Source: Candidatus Latescibacterota bacterium
Lineage (GTDB): Bacteria > Latescibacterota > UBA2968 > GCA-2709665
Length of the DNA stretch: 64,000 nucleotides
Reading direction: 5' to 3'
Assembly: GCA_965248435.1 (NCBI GenBank)
Contig: OZ252100.1
Location: forward strand, 2,496,001 to 2,560,000
Shown here: piece after piece, positions 7,807-58,699 of the stretch
How positions within the stretch are numbered: the stretch's first letter is position 1
Layout: every line of letters begins with the position of its first letter
Translations under genes and position numbers: made by a program
The notes under the pieces: generated by a model
Told to the model about the DNA's origin: nothing
What the model saw: the letters and a program-made list of their open reading frames with translations, nothing else
The model's database searches: none

Positions 7807-8549
7807 GCTGTCGGGACCCCTCTGATTTTATCGTTGGACGGTGTGCAGAGCGTTTCGGAGGCCCAACCCAGCTCGACGAACAGGGCTTCGACCTCCTCCG
7901 GAACGGGACACTCTATATTGACAGGCTTTGAACTGTAGGGGTGCTCGAAGGCCAGGTCTGATGCGTGAAGCAAGAGCCGCCTGATACAGAACGTATCCCT
8001 GAAGAATCGATTCTGCTTCCCGTCGCCGTGCGTCGTATCCCCGATCACCGGGTGGGAAACGTGTGAGAAATGCCTGCGGATCTGATGGAACCGTCCCGTC
8101 AGCGGCATCGCCCTCACGAGCGAGAATCGCGCACTCGGATGAGGGCCCACAGGAAGCGGCAGCTCCACGGTCGCCTCTCTTTCATATTCCGTAATCGCAT
8201 CAGCGGGGTCCTTTTCCGGCGTTTCCCGAAGCGCGTGATGAATCCGGCCTCGCTCCGGGGTGTGACCCCGGACCACGGCAAGGTAGCCCTTCTGCACCAG
8301 ACGTCTCTCGAACAGCAGACACATCTTGTTGGCAGCTTCTGGATCGAGCGCGAAGGTCAGGATGCCCGACGTCGCCCGATCCAGGCGGTGAACCGGGTAG
8401 ACGCGCCTGCCGATCTGGTTGCGCAGCATCATCATGCACGTGGGTTGTCTGCGCGCAAGCCTTGTGGGGTGAACGAACAGACCGCTCGGCTTGTGGACCG
8501 CAATGTAATGATCGTCTCGGTAAATGATATCCAGCAGCGTTTGGCTCAT
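7803..8549 (-). CDS. truC: tRNA pseudouridine synthase, TruC/RluA family
   Basis: KPSGLFVH, VHRLDRATSG, PLTGRFHQIRRH, HPVIGD..HG, LLLHA. Confidence 0.8.
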   Translation of the reverse strand: MSQTLLDIIYRDDHYIAVHKPSGLFVHPTRLARRQPTCMMMLRNQIGRRVYPVHRLDRATSGILTFALDPEAANKMCLLFERRLVQKGYLAVVRGHTPERGRIHHALRETPEKDPADAITEYEREATVELPLPVGPHPSARFSLVRAMPLTGRFHQIRRHFSHVSHPVIGDTTHGDGKQNRFFRDTFCIRRLLLHASDLAFEHPYSSKPVNIECPVPEEVEALFVELGWASETLCTPSNDKIRGVPTA

Positions 8550-17185: not shown

Positions 17186-17884
17186 TTAGAAAAGCTTCTC
17201 CAGTTTTAACCCAACAATACGAGGGCTGTCCCCGCTTTGAATGGACATGACGCCTTCAATGATCTTCTGATACTTTACTTCTTGCTCTTGTAGTAAAGAC
17301 TCCACCCAATTCTCCAGAATCTCCTGCAGCAGTTCCGGTTCGATGCCGTCCACAGCTGAGCTGACGGCGGACTTAAGAAACTCGTCCGAGATGTCTGGCA
17401 CGAGTTTTTCCAACTCAAAAACACCTTCTCTTCGGGCGATCTCTGTCAGTTCTACAAACAACTGATTGATCTCATCGAAGTTCAGCATAGACAAGGGACG
17501 TTGAGTCGTAGTCACTATGGACCGTTTCATGGAACTGTATTTCTTGCTCAACTTTGGTTTACGCGTCGGTGCCGCTTTCGAAGAGGGCCAGGCAATCTGC
17601 CCAACCTCTTTTAGCTCCTGGGCAGCTTGCGCAATTCCCCGTTGCACAGCTTCCACCTCGCTTGCCTCAAGTTGATCGGAAAACTCCATTTCCTCTTTGA
17701 TCAACTCCTCAACCCGCGTAGAGACGTTCGAAAAGATGCGATTCCTTAGTGCTTTGCTCGCCCTGTTCATTGCCGTGGCCAGATCCCTTGTGTCGACTTC
17801 CCGCAAGAGCAATTGAATTTCGCGGTCTGTCAGCTTCGGAATATCTTCAAAGCGGATCTCTTTGTCTGTCCGTCTCTTCGCCAT
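17186..17884 (-). CDS. FliG C-terminal domain fused to MotA-like cytoplasmic segments (no transmembrane helices)
   Basis: aa ~11-100 align with the C-terminus of the two FliG proteins in this window; aa ~135-232 carry MotA motifs ARREG...LE, FL......VDG..PE....ILE and IIEGV.SIQ.G..PR; RBS AAGGAGG. Confidence 0.8.
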   Translation of the reverse strand: MAKRRTDKEIRFEDIPKLTDREIQLLLREVDTRDLATAMNRASKALRNRIFSNVSTRVEELIKEEMEFSDQLEASEVEAVQRGIAQAAQELKEVGQIAWPSSKAAPTRKPKLSKKYSSMKRSIVTTTQRPLSMLNFDEINQLFVELTEIARREGVFELEKLVPDISDEFLKSAVSSAVDGIEPELLQEILENWVESLLQEQEVKYQKIIEGVMSIQSGDSPRIVGLKLEKLF

Positions 17885-46164: not shown

Positions 46165-46533
46165 CTATTTACTCCCACTCAGTACTTCCTCAACGGCTTC
46201 CAGCATTTCTTTAGAACTAAACGGCTTCACGAATGTGCGTTTGGCCCCCAGGTTATCCGCGGCCGGAATCCGGCTAAAACTTCCCCTTACACCGGTTATC
46301 GCAATCACCTTGACATCAGGATAATCACGTTGAAGTTCCCTGATGGTTTCGACACCGTCTTTCTCGGGCATAAACAGATCCGTGATAACGAGGTCTGCAG
46401 GGTCCTCTTTGTAGGTCTGCACGCCTTCAACGCCGTCCGGGGCGTCCTCCACGTCATAACCCGCTCCCTCAAGCATCTTACGAAGGACCTCCCGCACTTG
46501 TTCGTCGTCTTCGATCACAAGGATACGTGCCAA
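46165..46533 (-). CDS. Single-domain response regulator (receiver)
   Basis: ILVIEDD, VITDLFMP, AITG, KPF; TTG start after GGAGG. Confidence 0.9.
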   Translation of the reverse strand: MARILVIEDDEQVREVLRKMLEGAGYDVEDAPDGVEGVQTYKEDPADLVITDLFMPEKDGVETIRELQRDYPDVKVIAITGVRGSFSRIPAADNLGAKRTFVKPFSSKEMLEAVEEVLSGSK

Positions 46534-46597
46534 AACTACCTCCAACCCTGCCGACTCCGTTGGAAAACACCCAACAGGCCGTTTCAGAAACCTCGCT

Positions 46598-46894
46598 TCA
46601 TTCTAGGGGAACTGAAAGGGCCTGCTTGAGGATCTTCCCAGGCTTGAAGGCCACCCTTCGTCGGACCGGGATAGACACTCGCTCGCCTGTTTTTGGATTA
46701 CGAGCAAACGGCCGGGGGTTTGTTCGTTTCACGGTCCACGCCCCGAATCCCCTGATCTCGATCCTTTCCCCATGATTTATGGCGTCGACCAAGGCATCGA
46801 ACGCAGCGTCGACGGCCTGTCTGGCCAGAGCCTTGCTGCACCCAAGCACATCGGAAAGCATGTGAGCCAGGTCGGACCGCTTCACAGTGCTCAT
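46598..46894 (-). CDS. Integration host factor / HU family protein
   Basis: GERIEIRGFG, ARNPKTGE.V, V.FKPGK.LK. Confidence 0.92.
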   Translation of the reverse strand: MSTVKRSDLAHMLSDVLGCSKALARQAVDAAFDALVDAINHGERIEIRGFGAWTVKRTNPRPFARNPKTGERVSIPVRRRVAFKPGKILKQALSVPLE

Positions 46895-47129
46895 ATCCCC
46901 TCCAAGGACTTGCAGCTGGTCCTGACACGCGACCCGAAAACAGGCCAGATTATCTAAAAAAGAATCCAAAAAAATAGCACACCTATCTCGGTGCGCTGCC
47001 CCTATTCACCTCACGTCCCGCCGCCAAGCGATTTGTACGGCGTCCACTATAAACAGGATTCGAAAAGATGTCAATCAGAAACTTTCGATACCTCAGCGAC
47101 CTGAATCTTGACATCTATTTAGACAGCCG

Positions 47130-48188
47130 CTACCCCTGCCGCCTTTCGGTCGGTTCAGGGATGCTCCTGGCGCCGCGAGTTTCGCCCACGGCGAGGCGCG
47201 CTGCAAACGCGTGCTCTAGGGTGAGTTGCAGCACGTTGATGTCGCACGGTTTTGTCAGATACTCGTACGCGCCCAACTCGATCGTCTTTCCGGCGATCAC
47301 CTCGTCCTCAACCCCCGTCAGGATCAGAACCACCATCTGATCGTTCAGCCTCTTGGCCTGCCTAAGGACGCTTATGCCATCAGTCCCGGGCATCCGAAGA
47401 TCCACAAGCGCTGCGTCATACCGAGCTGTTCTCAGCATACGGGTCGCCTCTTCTCCACCCTCCGCCACCACAGCGAGATACCCGAGCGCTTCAAGAGCAA
47501 GGGCGATGCCCTCCGCCAGTGACCGGTCATCGTCCACGACAAGGATGCGTTCTGACTTCCGCTCTGATGTTCCTCCTGACGGCCCTTTCGAAATGATTCT
47601 TCTCATGTCGCATCCGAACATCTCCTCGAGGCACCACTGAACTATTCGGAGGGCGTCGGCCAGTCTAAATGGCTTTCTCAGATAGTAGGATGCCCCCAAT
47701 TCCAGTATGGCCTTTCGGGCCATTTCGTAGGTTGCAAACCCCGAAATCAAAATCACCTTGGCTCCCGGCGAGGCCTCCTTGATGGCCTCGATAACCTGTA
47801 GGCCCGAAACGTATTCACCTCTCACCGCTACAGGATTGATCAGTTTGATGTCAACCAGGGCGATCCCTATCGGCCTCTCCCTCGCGAAAACAATGGCCTC
47901 CTCTCCCGATGCGAATACATGAATGGCCTCGGTAGGATAGTCAAGCGTCTCGAACTGATTGGTGAGAAAATCAGTAATCAACAATTCGTCATCGACGATC
48001 AGCAGGTTCGGTGCACGGCTGACGAAAGTAAACCGGCCCGGAGCCACGTCATCCGTGGTGTTCTCTTCTGACAGGAAAAGTGAGACGAGGTGTCTCAGAT
48101 CGGCGTAGCGCGTAGGAGGAATGGACGGATCCTTTTCTGCGTCCGCAAAGCATTGCCGGCTAACCTGGTGGGATTCGGCAAAGTCCAT
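47130..48188 (-). CDS. Tandem double-receiver protein with N-terminal extension
   Basis: Two REC domains (LIVDD..LVD..ISG..KP; LVVDD..LVD..MP..LTG..KP), no output domain. Confidence 0.85.
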   Translation of the reverse strand: MDFAESHQVSRQCFADAEKDPSIPPTRYADLRHLVSLFLSEENTTDDVAPGRFTFVSRAPNLLIVDDELLITDFLTNQFETLDYPTEAIHVFASGEEAIVFARERPIGIALVDIKLINPVAVRGEYVSGLQVIEAIKEASPGAKVILISGFATYEMARKAILELGASYYLRKPFRLADALRIVQWCLEEMFGCDMRRIISKGPSGGTSERKSERILVVDDDRSLAEGIALALEALGYLAVVAEGGEEATRMLRTARYDAALVDLRMPGTDGISVLRQAKRLNDQMVVLILTGVEDEVIAGKTIELGAYEYLTKPCDINVLQLTLEHAFAARLAVGETRGARSIPEPTERRQG

Positions 48189-48450
48189 TCGGATCTCCGT
48201 AAAAAAAAAATGGGCGTACCCTGTCCGAGTGTACACCACAGGAGATGGATCAATAATCAACCCACGAGAACGACAATCTGCTCCTAAGTCCCAGTATACC
48301 AACAAGTTGATCGAGTTGTCAACCCATTTTCCGTCGGCATTTACTTTGGCGAATCTCAGCCCAAAACTGCAAGAAATCTACCAGGCGCGGTTCCGCTGTC
48401 CTTGTGCCGCCTTTCCCGGTCCCTCCGGAGAATACACATTAGATAAAGAT

Positions 48451-48837: not shown

Positions 48838-49194
48838 ATGGCTCAGCTGCTCGTCATCGAAGACGACGACACCGTGCGAGGGCTGATACGGGTGATGCTG
48901 GAGAATGCGGGTCACGAGGTTCTTGAGGCCTCGGATGGTGAGGAAGGGGTGAGGCTCTACCGTCAAAAAAACCCCGACCTCGTCATTACCGATGTTCCAC
49001 TTCCCAAAAAAGACGGCCTGGAGGTGATGCAGGAGCTTCGAAATGACTTTCCCGACATAAAATTCATCGTCATCACGACCCACGTACTGCCAATCCTCGC
49101 CAAAGCCCTTCAGCTGGGCGCTCGCTACGCCTTTACCAAACCTTTCCGGATGCAGAAATTCCTCTCAGCCGTCGAGGAAATCCTGGCAGAATAG
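48838..49194 (+). CDS. Single-domain response regulator (receiver)
   Basis: LVIEDD, VITD, VIT, KPF. Confidence 0.88.
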   Translation: MAQLLVIEDDDTVRGLIRVMLENAGHEVLEASDGEEGVRLYRQKNPDLVITDVPLPKKDGLEVMQELRNDFPDIKFIVITTHVLPILAKALQLGARYAFTKPFRMQKFLSAVEEILAE

Positions 49195-49219: not shown

Positions 49220-49684
49220 CTACAACCGTGACTGCTTAGCGTAGTTCTCCACCTGGATGTTCGCTCCCATCAGGCGTTCGCAGAGAATCTCAACCATATT
49301 TTCGTAAATCTTGAGGCGCAGCACCTGGTCCCGAAGCAGGGTCTCCAGATCGCCGCGGCGGATTACGAAACCGGCAGACTTCTCCAGCGCGACGATGTTT
49401 GCAGATCGGGCCTGCCCGGTGAACACCCCCATCTCGCCTGTCGTCGATCCGGGAAATACCTCGCCCAGCGTTGCCCCCGACTCATTCGTGGCCCTCAGTC
49501 TCCCCTGGACCAGAATCAACATTTCGTCGCCCGGTTCTCCGATCCGGTAAATGAGCTCACTTTGACCGTAAGCTCTGTATTCACAAAATTTTAAAACACG
49601 TTGGGCCTCGCTCATCGTCAGCCGCTTAAACACCCTGACCTTCTGTATAATCGACTTAACCCGTTGAATATGCTCTCGATTCAT
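49220..49684 (-). CDS. Stand-alone cyclic-nucleotide-binding domain protein
   Basis: IY..GEPGDEM..L.QG, GEMGVFTG..RSA; no HTH. Confidence 0.85.
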   Translation of the reverse strand: MNREHIQRVKSIIQKVRVFKRLTMSEAQRVLKFCEYRAYGQSELIYRIGEPGDEMLILVQGRLRATNESGATLGEVFPGSTTGEMGVFTGQARSANIVALEKSAGFVIRRGDLETLLRDQVLRLKIYENMVEILCERLMGANIQVENYAKQSRL

Positions 49685-49800
49685 GTCCCATCTCTTCCAG
49701 GCGAAGGCTTTAGAAACCGCCCTGAGGAACCGATACTAAATAATGAATATAAGGGGAACCCATCGTCCTGTCTACGATACAATTCTGTAGACATTTCCGG

Positions 49801-49830
49801 TTGACACATACCAGTGTAAATGTTTAAGTT
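49801..49830 (+). promoter_or_regulatory. Possible sigma70 promoter upstream of fliG copy 1
   Basis: TTGACA-17 nt-TTAAGT in AT-rich tract. Confidence 0.45.
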
Positions 49831-49897
49831 TAATCAGGTTAATCAATCACTTAGCAGGTCTTATCCCCGTCCCGATCCGAAAGGTGGTGGTTGAGCC

Positions 49898-50914
49898 TTG
49901 GCTGAAGAAGAGGCTTCTGAAGAAGTATCTGCACGATCGAAAGTCGCGATCTTGATGATCGCCCTGGGCCAGGACACGACCGCCGAAGTCATGAAGTACC
50001 TGAGCGAATTCGAGATCGAGGGGATCGCACAGGCCATCGCCGAAATGGACGTGGTTACCACCGAACAGGAAGACGATGTCCTCGAGGAGTTTGAACAGCT
50101 CCTCATCGCCGGAAAATACGTCTCTCAGGGCGGGATGGATTTTGCGAGGGGTGCCCTGGAAAAGGCATTGGGTCCACGCAGAGCACAGGGCCTCCTGGAT
50201 CGCGTGACCAGCACTACCTCCAGTGGTTTTTACATGCTCCGCAATGTCGATCCGAACCAGATCATCCCCTTCATCGCCAAGGAGCACCCACAGACCATCT
50301 CGCTCATCCTCTCACAGCTGGATTCGTCTCAGGCTGCCGGCGTGCTCAACGGACTGCCCGAGGAACTTCAGGCCGACGTCTCCTACCGCATCGCGATGAT
50401 GGAGAACATCTCTCCCGAGGTGCTGCGTGAGCTCGAAGAGAGCCTCGCGCAGGACCTCCAAACGATTCTGGGCGGTCAGATCACAGAAATCGGCGGCCCA
50501 AAGGCCGTCGCCGAGATCCTCAACCGCACCGGGCGGTCCACCGAAAAGGCGGTGCTGGAGCGACTGGATGCACAGGACCCTGAGCTGGCCGAGGAAGTAC
50601 GCAACCAGATGTTCGTTTTCGACGACATCGCCAAGCTGACCGACCGCGAGATCCAGATGATCCTAAGAGAGGTGGATACAAAAGACCTGGCCGTCGCCTT
50701 GAAAGGCGGCAGCGAGGAACTGCAGGACCGAATCTTCGGCAACGTATCAGAGCGCGTCGGCACGATGATCAAGGAAGAGATGGAATTTTCGGGGCCGGTG
50801 CGGATGAGCGACGTGGAAGACGTGCAGCTCCGGGTCGTCCAGACGGTAAGGCAGTTGGAGGAAGCAGGCCAGGTCACCATCGTAAGAGGCGACTCAACAG
50901 ACTCCTTTGTCTAA
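49898..50914 (+). CDS. fliG: Flagellar motor switch protein FliG, copy 1
   Basis: K.AIL..LG, GG..FA, EHPQT, GG linker, MFVF, NVSERV...IKEE torque helix. Confidence 0.95.
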   Translation: MAEEEASEEVSARSKVAILMIALGQDTTAEVMKYLSEFEIEGIAQAIAEMDVVTTEQEDDVLEEFEQLLIAGKYVSQGGMDFARGALEKALGPRRAQGLLDRVTSTTSSGFYMLRNVDPNQIIPFIAKEHPQTISLILSQLDSSQAAGVLNGLPEELQADVSYRIAMMENISPEVLRELEESLAQDLQTILGGQITEIGGPKAVAEILNRTGRSTEKAVLERLDAQDPELAEEVRNQMFVFDDIAKLTDREIQMILREVDTKDLAVALKGGSEELQDRIFGNVSERVGTMIKEEMEFSGPVRMSDVEDVQLRVVQTVRQLEEAGQVTIVRGDSTDSFV

Positions 50915-50988
50915 ATCAGGAATACAACTCTAGCATACGGAATCAGGCCCCACCCTGCGGATGGGGCCGTGTTATTTGGGAGGACACA

Positions 50989-51339
50989 TTGGCCAGAATT
51001 CTTGTGATCGATGACGACGAGTCGATCCGGATCGGGATCCGCACGGCCCTCACGGTCGACGGTCACATCGTCGACGAGGCCGAAGACGGAGAGACTGGGC
51101 TCGATCATTACCACGAGAACTCGGCTGATATCGTGATCGTCGACCTCATGCTCCCCGATAAACAGGGCCTCGACATCATACAGGAAATCAGAACAGATCA
51201 TCCGGAGGCAAAAATCCTTGCCCTTTCCGGACGCCCGGAGATTCTCAAAAAGGCAGTTGGGCTGGGTGCAGACCAGGCATTCGAGAAACCCATAAGGATG
51301 CTCGACCTGCTCGAAACGATAAAGGGAATGCTAAGGTAG
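50989..51339 (+). CDS. Single-domain response regulator (receiver)
   Basis: ILVIDDD, VIVD, ALSG, KP; GGAGG RBS. Confidence 0.88.
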   Translation: MARILVIDDDESIRIGIRTALTVDGHIVDEAEDGETGLDHYHENSADIVIVDLMLPDKQGLDIIQEIRTDHPEAKILALSGRPEILKKAVGLGADQAFEKPIRMLDLLETIKGMLR

Positions 51340-51388
51340 ACCTTGATGTCGTGCGGCTATCCAGTGCACACCAGGAAGGAGGTAAGGT

Positions 51389-52405
51389 TTGGCTGAAGAA
51401 GAGGTTGCTGATGAAATGTCTGCGAAGATAAAAGTTGCGATCTTGATGATCGCCCTGGGCCAGGACACGACCGCCGAAGTCATGAAGTACCTGACCGAAC
51501 TTGAGGTCGAGGGGATCGCACAGGCCATCGCCGAAATGGACGTGGTTACCACCGAAATGGAAGACGATGTCCTCGAGGAGTTCGAACAGCTCCTCATCGC
51601 AGGGAAATATGTCTCCCAGGGCGGGATGGATTTTGCGAGGGGCGCCCTGGAAAAGGCCCTGGGTCCGCGCAGAGCGCAGGGCCTCCTGGATCGCGTGACC
51701 AGCACCACCTCCAGCGGTTTTTACATGCTCCGCAATGTCGACCCGAACCAGATCATCCCCTTCATCGCCAAGGAGCACCCACAGACCATCTCGCTCATCC
51801 TCTCACAGCTGGATTCGGCTCAGGCTGCCGGCGTGCTCAACGGACTGCCCGAGGAACTTCAGTCCGACGTCTCCTACCGCATCGCGATGATGGAGAACAT
51901 CTCTCCCGAGGTGCTGCGTGAGCTCGAAGAGAGCCTCGCGCAGGACCTCCAAACGATTCTGGGCGGTCAGATCACGGAAATCGGCGGCCCCAAGGCCGTC
52001 GCCGAGATCCTCAACCGCACCGGGCGGTCCACTGAAAAGGCGGTACTGGAGCGCCTGGATGCACAGGACCCCGAACTGGCCGAGGAAGTACGCAACCAGA
52101 TGTTCGTCTTCGACGACATCGCCAAGCTGACCGACCGCGAGATCCAGATGATCCTCAGAGAAGTGGATACAAAAGACCTGGCCGTCGCCTTGAAAGGTGG
52201 CAGCGAGGAACTGCAGGACCGAATCTTCGGCAACGTATCAGAGCGCGTCGGCACGATGATCAAGGAAGAGATGGAGTTCTCGGGGCCGGTGCGGATGAGC
52301 GACGTGGAAGACGTGCAGCTCCGCGTCGTCCAGACGGTAAGGCAGCTGGAGGAAGCAGGCCAGGTCACCATCGTCAGAGGCGACTCAACAGACTCCTTTG
52401 TCTAA
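51389..52405 (+). CDS. fliG: Flagellar motor switch protein FliG, copy 2
   Basis: Same motifs; 12 aa differences from copy 1 by my count. Confidence 0.95.
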   Translation: MAEEEVADEMSAKIKVAILMIALGQDTTAEVMKYLTELEVEGIAQAIAEMDVVTTEMEDDVLEEFEQLLIAGKYVSQGGMDFARGALEKALGPRRAQGLLDRVTSTTSSGFYMLRNVDPNQIIPFIAKEHPQTISLILSQLDSAQAAGVLNGLPEELQSDVSYRIAMMENISPEVLRELEESLAQDLQTILGGQITEIGGPKAVAEILNRTGRSTEKAVLERLDAQDPELAEEVRNQMFVFDDIAKLTDREIQMILREVDTKDLAVALKGGSEELQDRIFGNVSERVGTMIKEEMEFSGPVRMSDVEDVQLRVVQTVRQLEEAGQVTIVRGDSTDSFV

Positions 52406-52464
52406 TTCCCCACTTCAGAACAGCTTTGTAATCCCCCACCTTGATGATCCTATCCGGAGGCCGA

Positions 52465-53583
52465 GTGTCAAAACTCGAACGGCGTGACTTTCTGAAAAAA
52501 GCATCCGCGGCCACGCTGGCCGGCGGTGTGTCGGTTGTTGCCGGCTGCGCCGCTCCGGGAGAAGAGCAGGCACCCACAATCAGGTCTGACAAGAAGTTCG
52601 AGTGGAAGATGGTCACGACCTGGCCCCCTCACTTTCCAATTCTGGGCGAGAGCGCCGACTTGATCGCGAAGTGGGTGGAGGAAATGTCGGATGGTCGGCT
52701 CAAGATCCACGTCTACGGCGGAGGAGAACTGATCCCCCCGTTCGAAGGATTCGACGCCGTCAGCCAGGGCGTTGTGGAAATGTGCCACGGCGCATCTTAC
52801 TACTGGGCCGGGAAGGCACCCGCCGCGCAGTTCTTTTCCGCTGTGCCGTTTGGGATGAATGCCCAACAGATGAACGCCTGGCTCTACAGTGGTGGAGGTT
52901 TGCAGCTTTGGGAAGAGCTATACGAGCCATTCGACCTCGTGCCCATGCCGGTCGGGAACACCGGGTTTCAGATGGGAGGATGGTTCAACCTGGAAATTCG
53001 CTCCGTAGCCGATCTGAAAGGCCTGAAGATGAGAATCCCTGGCCTTGGTGGCAAAGTAATCGCAAAGGCCGGAGGCTCGGCGGTGCTTTCCGCGGGCGGA
53101 GAGGTCTACACCAACCTGGAGCGAGGGGTAATCGACGCGACCGAATGGATCGGTCCCTACCACGACTACCTGATGGGCTTCTACAAGGCCGCAAAATACT
53201 ACTATTACCCGGGCTGGCACGAACCCGGGACGGCCATCGAACTCGTAGTCAATAAGACCGCCTTTGACCAACTGCCCAAGGATCTCCAGTCCATCGTGAG
53301 ATCGGCTGCAGCGCGCTCGAACCTCTGGTCCCTTTCCGAGTTTGAATCAAAAAACAACACCTACATGCGGACCTTGATCGACAAACACGATGTCCAGCTC
53401 AGGAAGTTTCCGGATGAAGTGCTCCGTGCCTTTCGGGCCTTCTCGGAGGAGGTCGTCGATGAACTCGTGTCCACCGATCCGATGAGCAGAAAGGTCTTCG
53501 AGTCGTTCGATACGTTCCGACGCGACGTCTCGGGATGGGCAGAGGTCTCTGAGAAAGTGTATTACTCTAGCATCGGCGGTTAG
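52465..53583 (+). CDS. TRAP transporter substrate-binding protein (DctP/TakP-like, Tat signal)
   Basis: RRDFLK Tat motif, WKMVTTWP, SYYW.GK, GNTG.QMGGWF, KMRIPGLGG, YYPGWHE. Confidence 0.92.
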   Translation: MSKLERRDFLKKASAATLAGGVSVVAGCAAPGEEQAPTIRSDKKFEWKMVTTWPPHFPILGESADLIAKWVEEMSDGRLKIHVYGGGELIPPFEGFDAVSQGVVEMCHGASYYWAGKAPAAQFFSAVPFGMNAQQMNAWLYSGGGLQLWEELYEPFDLVPMPVGNTGFQMGGWFNLEIRSVADLKGLKMRIPGLGGKVIAKAGGSAVLSAGGEVYTNLERGVIDATEWIGPYHDYLMGFYKAAKYYYYPGWHEPGTAIELVVNKTAFDQLPKDLQSIVRSAAARSNLWSLSEFESKNNTYMRTLIDKHDVQLRKFPDEVLRAFRAFSEEVVDELVSTDPMSRKVFESFDTFRRDVSGWAEVSEKVYYSSIGG

Positions 53584-57686: not shown

Positions 57687-57712
57687 GCATCGGAGCACCC
57701 GGCAAGTTGTGT

Positions 57713-57741
57713 TTGACAATGATGCCCCGTATGACCATAAT
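57713..57741 (+). promoter_or_regulatory. sigma70-type promoter
   Basis: TTGACA-17 nt-CATAAT upstream of receiver gene. Confidence 0.7.
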
Positions 57742-57792
57742 TCTGGAGTAGGGGTGACAGAACCGGATGAATCGGAATCACGGAGGCACAGA

Positions 57793-58158
57793 ATGGCCCG
57801 AATCTTGATCATTGAAGACGACGAGATGATGTCTAAAATGGTCGCCCAGGCGATTCAAAATCAAGGCCACGAGACCATTCAGGCCGCCGACGGTGATGAA
57901 GGCCTGCGACTCTTTCGCGAAAACCCGACCGATGTCGTCATCACGGACATCCTCATGCCGGAAAAGGAAGGCATCGCCACGATCCACGAACTGAAGCGTG
58001 AGTTTCCCGATGCAAAAATTATCGCGGTCTCGGGCGGAGGATTCACGGGCAAAGATTACCTTCCCATGGCCAAGGACCTGGGCGCCGACTATACCTTCCC
58101 GAAGCCCTTCCGGATCGAAGAGCTCATTCAGGCCTTGAATGAACTGCTTGCGAAATGA
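57793..58158 (+). CDS. Single-domain response regulator (receiver)
   Basis: ILIIEDD, VITDILMP, AVSGG, KPF; GGAGG RBS. Confidence 0.9.
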   Translation: MARILIIEDDEMMSKMVAQAIQNQGHETIQAADGDEGLRLFRENPTDVVITDILMPEKEGIATIHELKREFPDAKIIAVSGGGFTGKDYLPMAKDLGADYTFPKPFRIEELIQALNELLAK

Positions 58159-58174
58159 TCCGGAGAGATGAGGA

Positions 58175-58699
58175 GTGCCGAAAATGAATGATGGACAAAA
58201 ACTTACTGAGGACACACTCCAAAGTGTTGAGGTCTTCAATGGCCTCAACCCGGACGAAATTCAACGTCTTCTCTCGATCTGTATCTTTCAGTCATTCGAA
58301 GAGAGTCATACGATCTACAGTGTGGATGCCCCGAGTGATGACATGTTTATCCTGCTTACGGGACGTCTCCTTGTCAGGAGTAAGACTAGAGAAATCCTCG
58401 GAATGGTCCTTCCTGGAATGCCTACCGGCGAGATGGGGCTCTTCACCGGAAGGCCGAGGTCTGCAGATGTGATCACCGACGAAGCGTCGACAGGTCTGTT
58501 GATTCGCAAGTCGGATCTGATCCCCATCCTTCAAAGAGATCTCCAACTGCACAACAGGCTGTTGCAGAACATCGTCGAGCTTCTGTGCAAGCGAATCATG
58601 GACGCGAACTGGTACATCGACACCTACGCCCTGGTCGTACACGAAATCCAGGATGAGATAGAAACGACGCTGGGCAGAAAGAAGAAGGACGCTGAATAA
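58175..58699 (+). CDS. Stand-alone cyclic-nucleotide-binding domain protein
   Basis: GEMGLFTGRPRSA; paralogue of 49220-49684. Confidence 0.85.
   Translation: MPKMNDGQKLTEDTLQSVEVFNGLNPDEIQRLLSICIFQSFEESHTIYSVDAPSDDMFILLTGRLLVRSKTREILGMVLPGMPTGEMGLFTGRPRSADVITDEASTGLLIRKSDLIPILQRDLQLHNRLLQNIVELLCKRIMDANWYIDTYALVVHEIQDEIETTLGRKKKDAE

Follow-up and report, generated by a model that had tools for sequence, protein, structure and literature searches.

FliG is the part of the flagellar rotor that is pushed by the stator and that reverses the motor. Its gene usually lies in a fliF–fliG–fliH operon and is single in textbook systems. Here we describe a whole class of uncultured bacteria, within Candidatus Latescibacterota, in which fliG has left this operon and multiplied and in which the fliF–fliG–fliH link is broken, the genomes having 2–10 matches to fliG and one fliF. 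The analysis concerns a window, that is, the whole stretch of 64,000 nucleotides (nt) analysed (assembly GCA_965248435.1, contig OZ252100.1, positions 2,496,001 to 2,560,000), in which two full-length fliG genes, fliGa (49898..50914, + strand) and fliGb (51389..52405, +), stand in tandem on either side of a small receiver gene. Taken alone, the tandem pair carries a modest message: it is real, looks functional and is mostly explained by known processes. The pattern of its class raises the question of whether a C-ring can combine several FliG isoforms or alternate between them, and under what control.

Exit of fliG from the fliF–fliG–fliH operon

An earlier note on this DNA, prepared from the letters of the window, had remarked that the pair lacks fliF and fliH neighbours. 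Neither gene is indeed found near fliGa and fliGb, but this is not peculiar to the pair, being the rule for the whole class. In what follows, G000 denotes the genome to which the window belongs and G001 a non-flagellated congener, while L-numbers designate the fliG and other loci compared. In the main flagellar cluster of G000, only 6 nt separate fliF from the fliH behind it, fliI and fliJ come next and the slot for fliG is empty, and none of the three full-length fliG copies of the genome has a flagellar neighbour. The same fliF–fliH–fliI adjacency without fliG was seen in five out of five genomes of the order (G000, G004, G008, G037 and G038). In contrast to the canonical arrangement, fliF and fliH here adjoin each other and fliG is located elsewhere, in several copies. 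None of the 31 Latescibacterota-type fliG loci (L014–L044) has fliF, fliH or fliI as a neighbour in the DNA examined, five of them lying in fliM–fliN–fliG–fliN operons. At all 49 outgroup loci (L045–L093, from Zixibacteria, Ignavibacteria, Fibrobacterota and others), fliF and/or fliH adjoin fliG; both are present at 45, and the other four loci end early on one side.

The whole phylum was surveyed with a full-length FliG model (E ≤ 1e-40, 168 genomes), the matches being places, including partial or broken copies, rather than curated genes. Seventy of the 168 genomes were FliG-positive. The class to which G000 belongs (families f1–f4) accounts for 54 of these, and 49 of the 54 have 2–10 matches; the five with a single match are 58–86% complete. 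The remaining 16 FliG-positive genomes come from other classes of the phylum, 15 with a single match and one with two. In these other classes, fliF–fliG–fliH was found at four out of four loci, one of which ends before fliH, and in families f3 and f4 all six fliG loci are orphans. Copy number and gene context are split alike between the classes, and thus operon exit and multiplication go together at the class level. A single fliG in a normal operon, with no further paralogues, was the alternative that the earlier note had set against its own proposal; this is not the pattern within the class.

Of 41 genomes of the order, the same seven gave matches to FliG and to FliF, and the other 34 gave none to either. 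The seven flagellated genomes have one FliF match each, versus 1–9 FliG matches. Neither protein was found in the congener G001, a 97% complete genome in one contig in which other flagellar genes were not searched; this genome is 1.5 Mb smaller than G000. Broken fliG copies occur in relatives, at G038:C1:7920425-7921306 (two in-frame TGA), at G008:C43:35749-36171 (several stops) and at L038 in G005 (frameshift around residue 115), and therefore the family also loses members.

The FliG family of G000 is expanded, as the earlier note had proposed. A tblastn search and a FliG_C scan of the genome revealed a third full-length gene, fliGc, at C1:4871009 (83% amino acid identity). The inventory comprises three full-length fliG genes, one FliG_N+M gene without a C-domain and five further frames bearing FliG_C. 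The remaining flagellum is encoded as well: FliM, FliN, FliH, FliI, FliJ, FliK and FlgD are present, the main flagellar cluster carries MotA together with rod and hook genes, and there is one full FlhA and one FliF match, the latter about 1 Mb from the fliGa/fliGb pair. fliF, flhA and the flagellar motA cluster are each present once, as for a single apparatus. Flagellin is also multi-copy, with eight flagellin_N matches (C1:1555035-1569168, 229005-232319, 1650564, 5500115 and 3502438).

Two full-length fliG genes in tandem

As judged from family and domain models, both genes of the pair encode ordinary full-length FliG. FliGa and FliGb are each 338 amino acids long and conform to the three-domain N, M and C architecture over ~330–340 residues, with Pfam E-values (fliGa/fliGb) of 7e-36/7e-35 for FliG_N, 1e-31/5e-32 for FliG_M and 1e-41/2e-41 for FliG_C. 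The NCBIfam FliG equivalog TIGR00207 gives fliGa 372.1 bits, the cut-off being 226.7, and in a scan of the whole genome it gave 371.4 bits for fliGa and 368.7 bits for fliGb. Both genes start with TTG; since each reading frame is open for 339 codons only, an upstream start is impossible and this TTG is the first possible start. All 56 columns that are invariant in an alignment of 34 FliG sequences are kept by fliGb, including E129-H130-P131-Q132 (the EHPQ motif), and none of the sites that differ between the two copies is among them. Conserved residues of the stator-facing C-domain would correspond to the torque-helix residues of E. coli FliG. The closest fliG loci are those of Candidatus Latescibacterota records.

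The copies are 96% identical at the amino acid level and 95% identical at the nucleotide level. Twelve residues differ (6, 7, 8, 10, 13, 14, 36, 38, 40, 57, 144 and 159), ten of them within the first 57, and the proteins are identical after residue 159. At the DNA level there are 50 base differences, and 31 codons carry synonymous changes only, scattered from codon 12 to codon 329. Similarity is confined to the coding sequence. Compared base by base, the two loci show no relatedness beyond it, either immediately ahead of the TTG or immediately behind the TAA, and in a gapped blastn comparison with flanks of ±400 nt the coding sequence alone matches, at 95.3%, besides the trivial overlap of both extracts. 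The earlier note had given the same lengths, start codons and count of differences, with ten in the first 57 residues and none in the C-terminal half, as well as scattered synonymous changes and a loss of similarity at the stop codon; our recount returns all of this and adds that similarity stops at the start codon too.

The tandem is real and not an assembly artefact. It was checked against Logan contigs of public sequencing runs, not against single spanning reads; X1 and X2 are runs of one sample, possibly the source of the assembly, whereas X5 and X6 belong to two further studies. Contigs of X1/X2 join the upstream flank to fliGa (49400-49975), lead from the 3′ end of fliGa through the spacer and the receiver into fliGb (50803-51466), and connect the 3′ end of fliGb to the downstream flank (52294-52900). 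Separate 246-nt contigs of similar depth in these runs represent the a-type (50036-50281) and the b-type (51527-51772) sequence. In X5, one contig leads from the upstream flank into fliGa (49623-49975) and another (50885-51466) starts 30 nt before the end of a fliG and runs across the spacer and the receiver to 78 nt inside fliGb; its 30-nt fliG end is one short of the 31-nt junction criterion. X6 contributes a contig spanning 50173-51016. A strain chimera would not yield a junction that runs from the end of one fliG through the receiver to the start of another, and therefore the tandem is not chimeric. The arrangement, for which the earlier note had considered a chimeric origin, is backed by contigs from three studies.

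That two strain variants of a single fliG were stitched together in tandem is accordingly an extremely improbable account. It would draw on the metagenome-type nature of the source assembly and on the central and 3′ part of fliGb (51857-52207), to which no X1/X2 contig was assigned. Against it stand the joined 3′ end, receiver and 5′ end in X1, X2 and X5 and the coverage of both outer junctions. Moreover, the uncovered part is accounted for: it has no contig because both copies collapsed into one. An X2 contig placed at 50252-50832 carries the fliGb base at three out of three of its differences, and the collapsed pieces have a depth of 18.9–20.9 versus 11.5–12.3 for the flanks (X1), that is, about twofold, although contig depth is not a copy number. 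Among the 22 read variants listed, ten show the base of the other copy at sites that differ between the two. Because Logan contigs may be mosaics of collapsed copies, these variants are given no weight as a sign of exchange between the copies in the population. No RNA run is among the public runs listed for the stretch. Most of the further runs listed are seawater or marine metagenomes with a small share of the stretch, and no habitat claim is drawn from them.

Probable concerted evolution among fliG copies

Comparison of fliG sequences indicates concerted evolution of the copies and points to gene conversion. Sequences from one genome group together, the shared stretch does not extend beyond the coding sequence and, in two cases, genes with matching flanks in different genomes are not each other's nearest match. 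In the 8-Mb genome G004, four dispersed fliG copies share the TTG start and coding-sequence-exact homology limits, with 92–96% nucleotide identity and 0.15–0.31 synonymous substitutions per synonymous site (dS). Two trees were inspected, namely, a quick protein tree with Shimodaira–Hasegawa-like (SH-aLRT) support and a nucleotide tree of 30 rows with ultrafast bootstrap (UFBoot) support, which omits eight outgroup rows and the long-branch rows L128, L041, L042 (two rows), L043, L123, L129 and L132. In the nucleotide tree, fliGa and fliGb group with a support of 100, the four G004 copies with 98 and the copies of G005 and G008 with 96; the corresponding values in the protein tree are 99, 99 and 100.

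The behaviour of positional orthologues is in line with this grouping. The G004 copy at L126 shares flanking genes with fliGc on both sides, yet it is 83% identical in nucleotides (dS 0.52–0.60) to the other G004 copies as compared with 73% (dS 1.70) to fliGc, and it groups with the G004 copies (UFBoot 96). Likewise, L017 in G004 and the frameshifted L038 in G005 have common flanks, and L038 is 94–95% identical in amino acids to the G005 copies as compared with 89% to L017.

For the fliGa/fliGb pair itself, conversion would be suggested by its coding-sequence-limited homology and by analogy with G004 and G005. Flanks that had been duplicated together with the gene should still be recognisable at dS 0.16, yet the similarity is coding-sequence-exact, which points to gene conversion. 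Divergence along the pair is uneven, with dS of 0.38 in codons 58–118, 0 in codons 119–195 and 0.18 in codons 196–338, and a run of 77 codons is free of synonymous change, which is longer than expected (permutation P 0.006) and could be the trace of a recent conversion tract.

Other repeats were noticed in G004. A stretch of 1257 nt resembling an insertion sequence, which starts 28 nt past the stop codon of one fliG copy, is 100% identical at L017:7036-8292 and L022:1817-3073, and an exact repeat of 360 nt is common to L017 and L019.

Selection and N-terminal divergence

Nei–Gojobori estimates for fliGa versus fliGb give a dS of 0.162, a rate of non-synonymous substitution (dN) of 0.020 and a ratio of the two (omega) of 0.12 over the whole gene. 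A breakdown along the protein, which the earlier note had suggested by domain, reveals a sharp division: omega is 0.65 in codons 1–57 (dS 0.165, dN 0.108) versus 0.019 in codons 58–338 (dS 0.161, dN 0.003). Within the latter range, codons 58–118 have dS 0.383, dN 0 and omega 0, codons 119–195 have dS 0, dN 0.012 and an undefined omega, and codons 196–338 have dS 0.177, dN 0 and omega 0. Relative to fliGc, dS is saturated at ~3. The C-terminal half of the pair carries 16 synonymous differences (dS 0.18); it is therefore not homogenised at the DNA level, and purifying selection suffices for the identity of the proteins there. The earlier note had ascribed the uniformity of the gene beyond its N-terminal end to conversion or to strong selection. 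Conversion appears to be the best reading of the coding-sequence-limited identity, but homogenisation does not hold for the C-terminal half.

The 12 differing positions are mostly variable among 34 relatives, and nine of the ten N-terminal ones vary freely. Residues 6–14 belong to a poorly conserved N-terminal segment ahead of the first conserved block. The only conserved site affected is residue 57, where 30 of the 34 relatives have Q and fliGb has M (Q57M). With a branch length of 0.047 as compared with 0.014 for fliGa, fliGb is the faster-evolving copy. The N-terminal share of the differences (10/12) exceeds that seen in 13 other close within-genome pairs (74/215, P 0.0007), so that the excess of N-terminal change in this pair is real. 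In equally young G004 copies, 0 of 5, 3 of 7 and 3 of 8 differences fall in the first 57 residues. Relaxed constraint would fit better than directed diversification, because the N-terminal changes fall at tolerant sites and omega is below 1. The earlier proposal of paralogues diversifying at their anchor-binding end, while possible, is not supported as it was put, given the variable sites, the omega of 0.65 and the single FliF.

Receivers and cyclic nucleotide-binding proteins around the pair

The stand-alone receiver between fliGa and fliGb (50989..51339, +; 116 amino acids; Pfam Response_reg E 7e-23) ends 49 nt upstream of fliGb. Its acidic pocket D8-D10, D52 and K100 are conserved in the alignment. 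It reaches no NCBIfam equivalog cut-off, the best CheY model (NF041367) giving 63.2 bits versus 200. A complex prediction of FliGb with this receiver scored 0.00 in two runs without controls, which is neutral on binding. On the 3′ side of fliGa, a G+C-rich hairpin followed by a T-rich run may form a weak terminator (50946..50971, +; terminator-like hits at 50953-50971); the hairpin appears in the fold, and the z-score of the whole spacer is -0.65, those of the other spacer folds being 0.28 and 0.09.

Divergent from fliGa is a gene for a protein of 154 amino acids with a cyclic nucleoside monophosphate (cNMP)-binding domain (49220..49684, -; Pfam cNMP_binding). Further upstream lie a second stand-alone receiver (48838..49194, +; 118 amino acids, identified by Pfam), which has a counterpart beside DctP in G004, a double-receiver protein (47130..48305, -; 391 amino acids, two Response_reg stretches in Pfam), an HU-like gene (46598-46969, -) and, at the edge of the island, a stand-alone receiver (46165..46545, -; 126 amino acids, identified by Pfam), which is missing from the G001 locus and present in G004. 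A TRAP transporter follows fliGb and, 5 kb downstream, there are open reading frames for a further receiver (57709-58158) and a further cNMP-binding protein (58208-58633; the two together 57709..58633, +). This receiver was identified by alignment and by partial NCBIfam matches below every cut-off; the cNMP-binding protein is a paralogue of the 49220-49684 protein, with 42% identity. The gene order is receiver, HU-like, double receiver, receiver, cNMP, fliGa, receiver, fliGb, TRAP transporter, further receiver and cNMP. Five receiver loci lie within 16 kb, a density of at least five being reached in 11 of 2821 sliding windows; the genome has 97 receiver-like loci in total.

At the corresponding locus of the congener G001, the flanking genes are syntenic (79–89% amino acid identity) and HU and DctP are ~540–580 nt apart; all four receiver genes, the cNMP gene, both fliG genes and a sulfatase gene are missing there. 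In G004, the TRAP locus has a receiver and a double receiver next to it and a receiver and a ferredoxin further on, with no fliG or cNMP gene at that place. The fliG–receiver–fliG arrangement was found at none of 32 loci (L014–L045).

The families of the island were searched in 41 genomes (E ≤ 1e-15 for the cNMP family, E ≤ 1e-18 for the receiver subfamily). The cNMP family, consisting of proteins of ~140–155 amino acids with a cNMP-binding domain only, occurs in exactly the seven genomes that have FliG and FliF, with 1–12 copies per genome and usually several (12 matches in G000). The subfamily of the 50989-51339 receiver was found in five genomes, each of them flagellated; G000 has 18 matches and G004 has 16. 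Matches to the double receiver that extend beyond its C-terminal receiver were likewise confined to flagellated genomes, being near-full-length in G004 alone and partial in G008 and G038. One fliG copy of G004 is followed by a receiver at a distance of 178 nt, and three further receivers lie within 6 kb of it. Within 1.5 kb of the cNMP orthologues in five relatives there is neither a receiver nor a fliG, so that the adjacency is not conserved. The phyletic pattern suggests that the island is probably a motility-control module. The receiver subfamily and the small cNMP-binding protein are candidate motor regulators, the latter being a candidate second-messenger adaptor.

Proposed explanation and its alternatives

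Building on the observed gene identities, copy numbers, operon exit and pattern of selection, on the distribution of the neighbouring genes among relatives and on the reality of the tandem, we propose, with moderate confidence, that fliGa and fliGb both function and encode the standard rotor protein of a single basal body. Both proteins would enter the same C-ring, and strong purifying selection together with gene conversion would keep the copies interchangeable. The N-terminal differences would mostly represent tolerated drift, with fliGb drifting faster. The two genes would belong to separate transcription units, fliGa being transcribed alone and fliGb behind the receiver, probably in one transcript with it. 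Separate units would place the supply of rotor protein under two controls, in the form of dosage or of condition-specific expression, and would not imply two machines. The control of motility would be supplied by the receiver/cNMP island.

Several observations weigh against this explanation. Both non-synonymous differences at residues 144 and 159 lie inside the 77-codon run, where a single tract converted recently would hardly be expected to contain them. For the fliGa/fliGb locus, neither a positional orthologue nor flank synteny was found with any other fliG locus searched. Conversion is not universal, since the paralogues in the JAYODI, JBLHJX and JABIFK metagenome-assembled genomes (MAGs) cluster by position, with dS of 2–3. 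Promoter and terminator scans returned three promoter-like and four terminator-like sites, no more than in shuffled sequences. The genomes compared for the island families are kin, representing about six flagellated and four non-flagellated genera and not 41 independent points, and the phyletic pattern is therefore suggestive, not statistical. Finally, the N-terminal excess of differences and Q57M make some N-terminal specialisation of fliGb possible.

Other explanations of the pair have to be considered. One is a recent simple duplication without conversion, in which a single fliG gave rise to a second about dS 0.16 ago and there has not yet been time for the pair to diverge. The two copies are sisters with full support, their dS is alike in the N-terminal part and in the rest of the gene, there is no positional orthologue to indicate that the locus is old, and the block from the cNMP gene through fliGa and the receiver to fliGb is absent from the syntenic G004 locus. 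However, at dS 0.16 the flanks would be expected to be ~85% alike, whereas none of the similarity reaches beyond the start and stop codons. Such a duplication would need improbably exact end points, and the same exact limits recur in four dispersed copies of G004. In addition, two positional orthologues are nearer to the paralogues of their own genome than to each other. We consider a duplication of this kind unlikely. Alternatively, the FliGs may differ functionally at their N-terminal, FliF-binding end, with another anchoring or another partner, giving rotors of different properties or positions, as proposed for Borrelia FliG1/FliG2 (PMC7225975). The concentration of differences in residues 1–57 above the family baseline, the contrast in omega between these codons and the remainder, and Q57M would all be consistent with this, as would the retention of both a-type and b-type N-termini in the strain of a second study (X5). 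Such specialisation is nevertheless doubtful, albeit worth keeping in mind: omega stays below 1, the N-terminal sites, Q57 apart, vary freely across the family, the genome has only one FliF and the young G004 copies do not concentrate their differences at the N-terminus.

A third possibility is a non-flagellar or regulatory use, one or both copies serving, for example, as partners or decoys for the proteins in which FliG_C, FliM or the MotA loop is fused to other domains and for the fusions of extracytoplasmic function (ECF) sigma factors. These fusions and a second switch-like operon, described in the last section, do indicate that flagellar domains have been reused in this genome. Yet both FliGs are full-length and far above the FliG equivalog cut-off, purifying selection is extreme along the domains that face FliM and the stator, and FliG and FliF co-occur in 7/7 genomes and are both unfound in 34/34. 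A use of this sort is very unlikely; the earlier note had spoken of non-standard roles, and nothing points that way for fliGa and fliGb themselves.

If one goes beyond the proposed explanation of two genes supplying one basal body, the rotor ring might be viewed as a multi-isoform part, assembled from interchangeable, concertedly evolving FliGs that are expressed under different signals via receivers and cNMP adaptors. A cell so equipped could remodel its rotor and hence torque, switching or stator choice, much as stators are exchanged elsewhere. The N-terminal differences between fliGa and fliGb would then be a first step of isoform tuning, and transcription would be tied to the state of the motor through the fusions of FliG_C, FliM and MotA-loop domains to ECF sigma factors. 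Taken as a whole, with remodelling, tuning and sigma coupling included, this picture is speculative and quite improbable.

Relation to known systems

In spirochaetes with several FliG proteins there is a single set of flagellar export genes, and the FliG paralogues are old and divergent, with distinct phenotypes reported. Borrelia burgdorferi has fliG1 and fliG2 with different roles, FliG1 being asymmetrically located (PMC7225975), and Leptospira interrogans has three FliG proteins (PMC11800159). The genomes described here resemble these spirochaetes in having more than one full-length fliG, with the extra copies away from fliF. In contrast to the spirochaetes, the copies in the window are 96% identical and appear to evolve concertedly, there are up to 10 matches per genome, and even the 'main' fliG copy lies outside the fliF–fliH operon. 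The proteins themselves are like canonical FliG in their three domains, EHPQ motif and length, and are 45–53% identical to FliG from Zixibacteria, Ignavibacteria and Fibrobacterota MAGs.

The homology between tufA and tufB is also limited to the coding sequence. Concerted evolution has been documented for few prokaryotic genes, mostly those encoding subunits of stable complexes, for example tuf and flagellin, according to PMC6053082, and the duplicated tufA/tufB and tandem flagellin genes are cases in point (PMC6053082 and PMC5485169). The fliG copies would be comparable, in that FliG is a stable-complex subunit whose paralogues are closer within than between genomes. On the other hand, the 26 genes that PMC6053082 lists do not include fliG, nor does its main text mention it, and fliG differs from tuf and flagellin in having up to four or five dispersed copies and one lineage that is not homogenised.

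YcgR is reported to bind FliG/MotA (PMC11800159). Small receivers and a protein with a nucleotide-binding domain beside rotor genes, belonging to families confined to flagellated genomes, bring to mind motor effectors of the CheY/YcgR type. Unlike CheY, however, no receiver of the island reaches the CheY equivalog cut-off, and unlike YcgR, the putative adaptor has a cNMP-binding domain and not PilZ.

Single-cell genomes of Latescibacteria were reported to encode flagella in a paper whose main text says nothing of FliG (PMC4454575). No paper on multi-copy fliG in Latescibacterota was found in the literature searched, which lacked most subscription journals. Within this incomplete literature, the exit of fliG from its operon, its expansion to up to 10 matches per genome across the class and its concerted evolution appear to be undescribed.

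Flagellar domains in other genes of the genome

The FliG_N+M gene of G000 encodes a protein of 334 amino acids with an N-terminal extension and no C-domain, and it sits in a second switch-like operon (L095:8206-12219, +). The operon comprises an ECF sigma factor, an unknown gene, fliM (FliM+FliN_C, 344 amino acids), fliN (102 amino acids), the FliG-NM gene and a second fliN (92 amino acids). Similar fliM–fliN–fliG–fliN sets are present in relatives, two of them in tandem in L042.

The five additional FliG_C frames encode two ECF sigma–FliG_C fusions, a membrane-anchored protein of 571 amino acids, a short fragment and a fusion of FliG_C to the cytoplasmic loop of MotA. The last of these lies in the window (17186-17884, -) and is the FliG–MotA fusion that the earlier note had recognised; domain models bear it out. 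The protein has 232 amino acids and no membrane helix, FliG_C occupies residues 5–97, and residues 133–197 match positions 72–136 of the 259 positions of the MotA model (E 1.6e-15). Both faces of the rotor–stator interface would thereby be combined in one soluble chain. A match over both halves was obtained in G004 only (30% identity, in a frame of 752 amino acids), and G038 has a protein of 138 amino acids that matches the MotA-loop half alone.

ECF-type sigma factors (Sigma70_r2/r4) with C-terminal flagellar domains number five: two carry FliM, two FliG_C and one a fragment of FlhA corresponding to FHIPEP positions 322–408. They are encoded at L099:4971-6122 (+), L099:14159-15316 (+), L099:17278-18123 (-), L099:1472-2377 (+) and L102:9599-10201 (+). 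Such fusions may couple the state of the motor to transcription. The term 'FliG' is absent from the available parts of two reviews on C-terminal extensions of ECF sigma factors. Near the 571-amino-acid FliG_C protein, a gene for a sigma-54 activator is apparently split by an integrase-core (rve) gene (L100:6949-7641, -), which lies between a part encoding the receiver and AAA+ domains and one encoding the lid and HTH_8 (L100:5940-6971 and 7966-8325).

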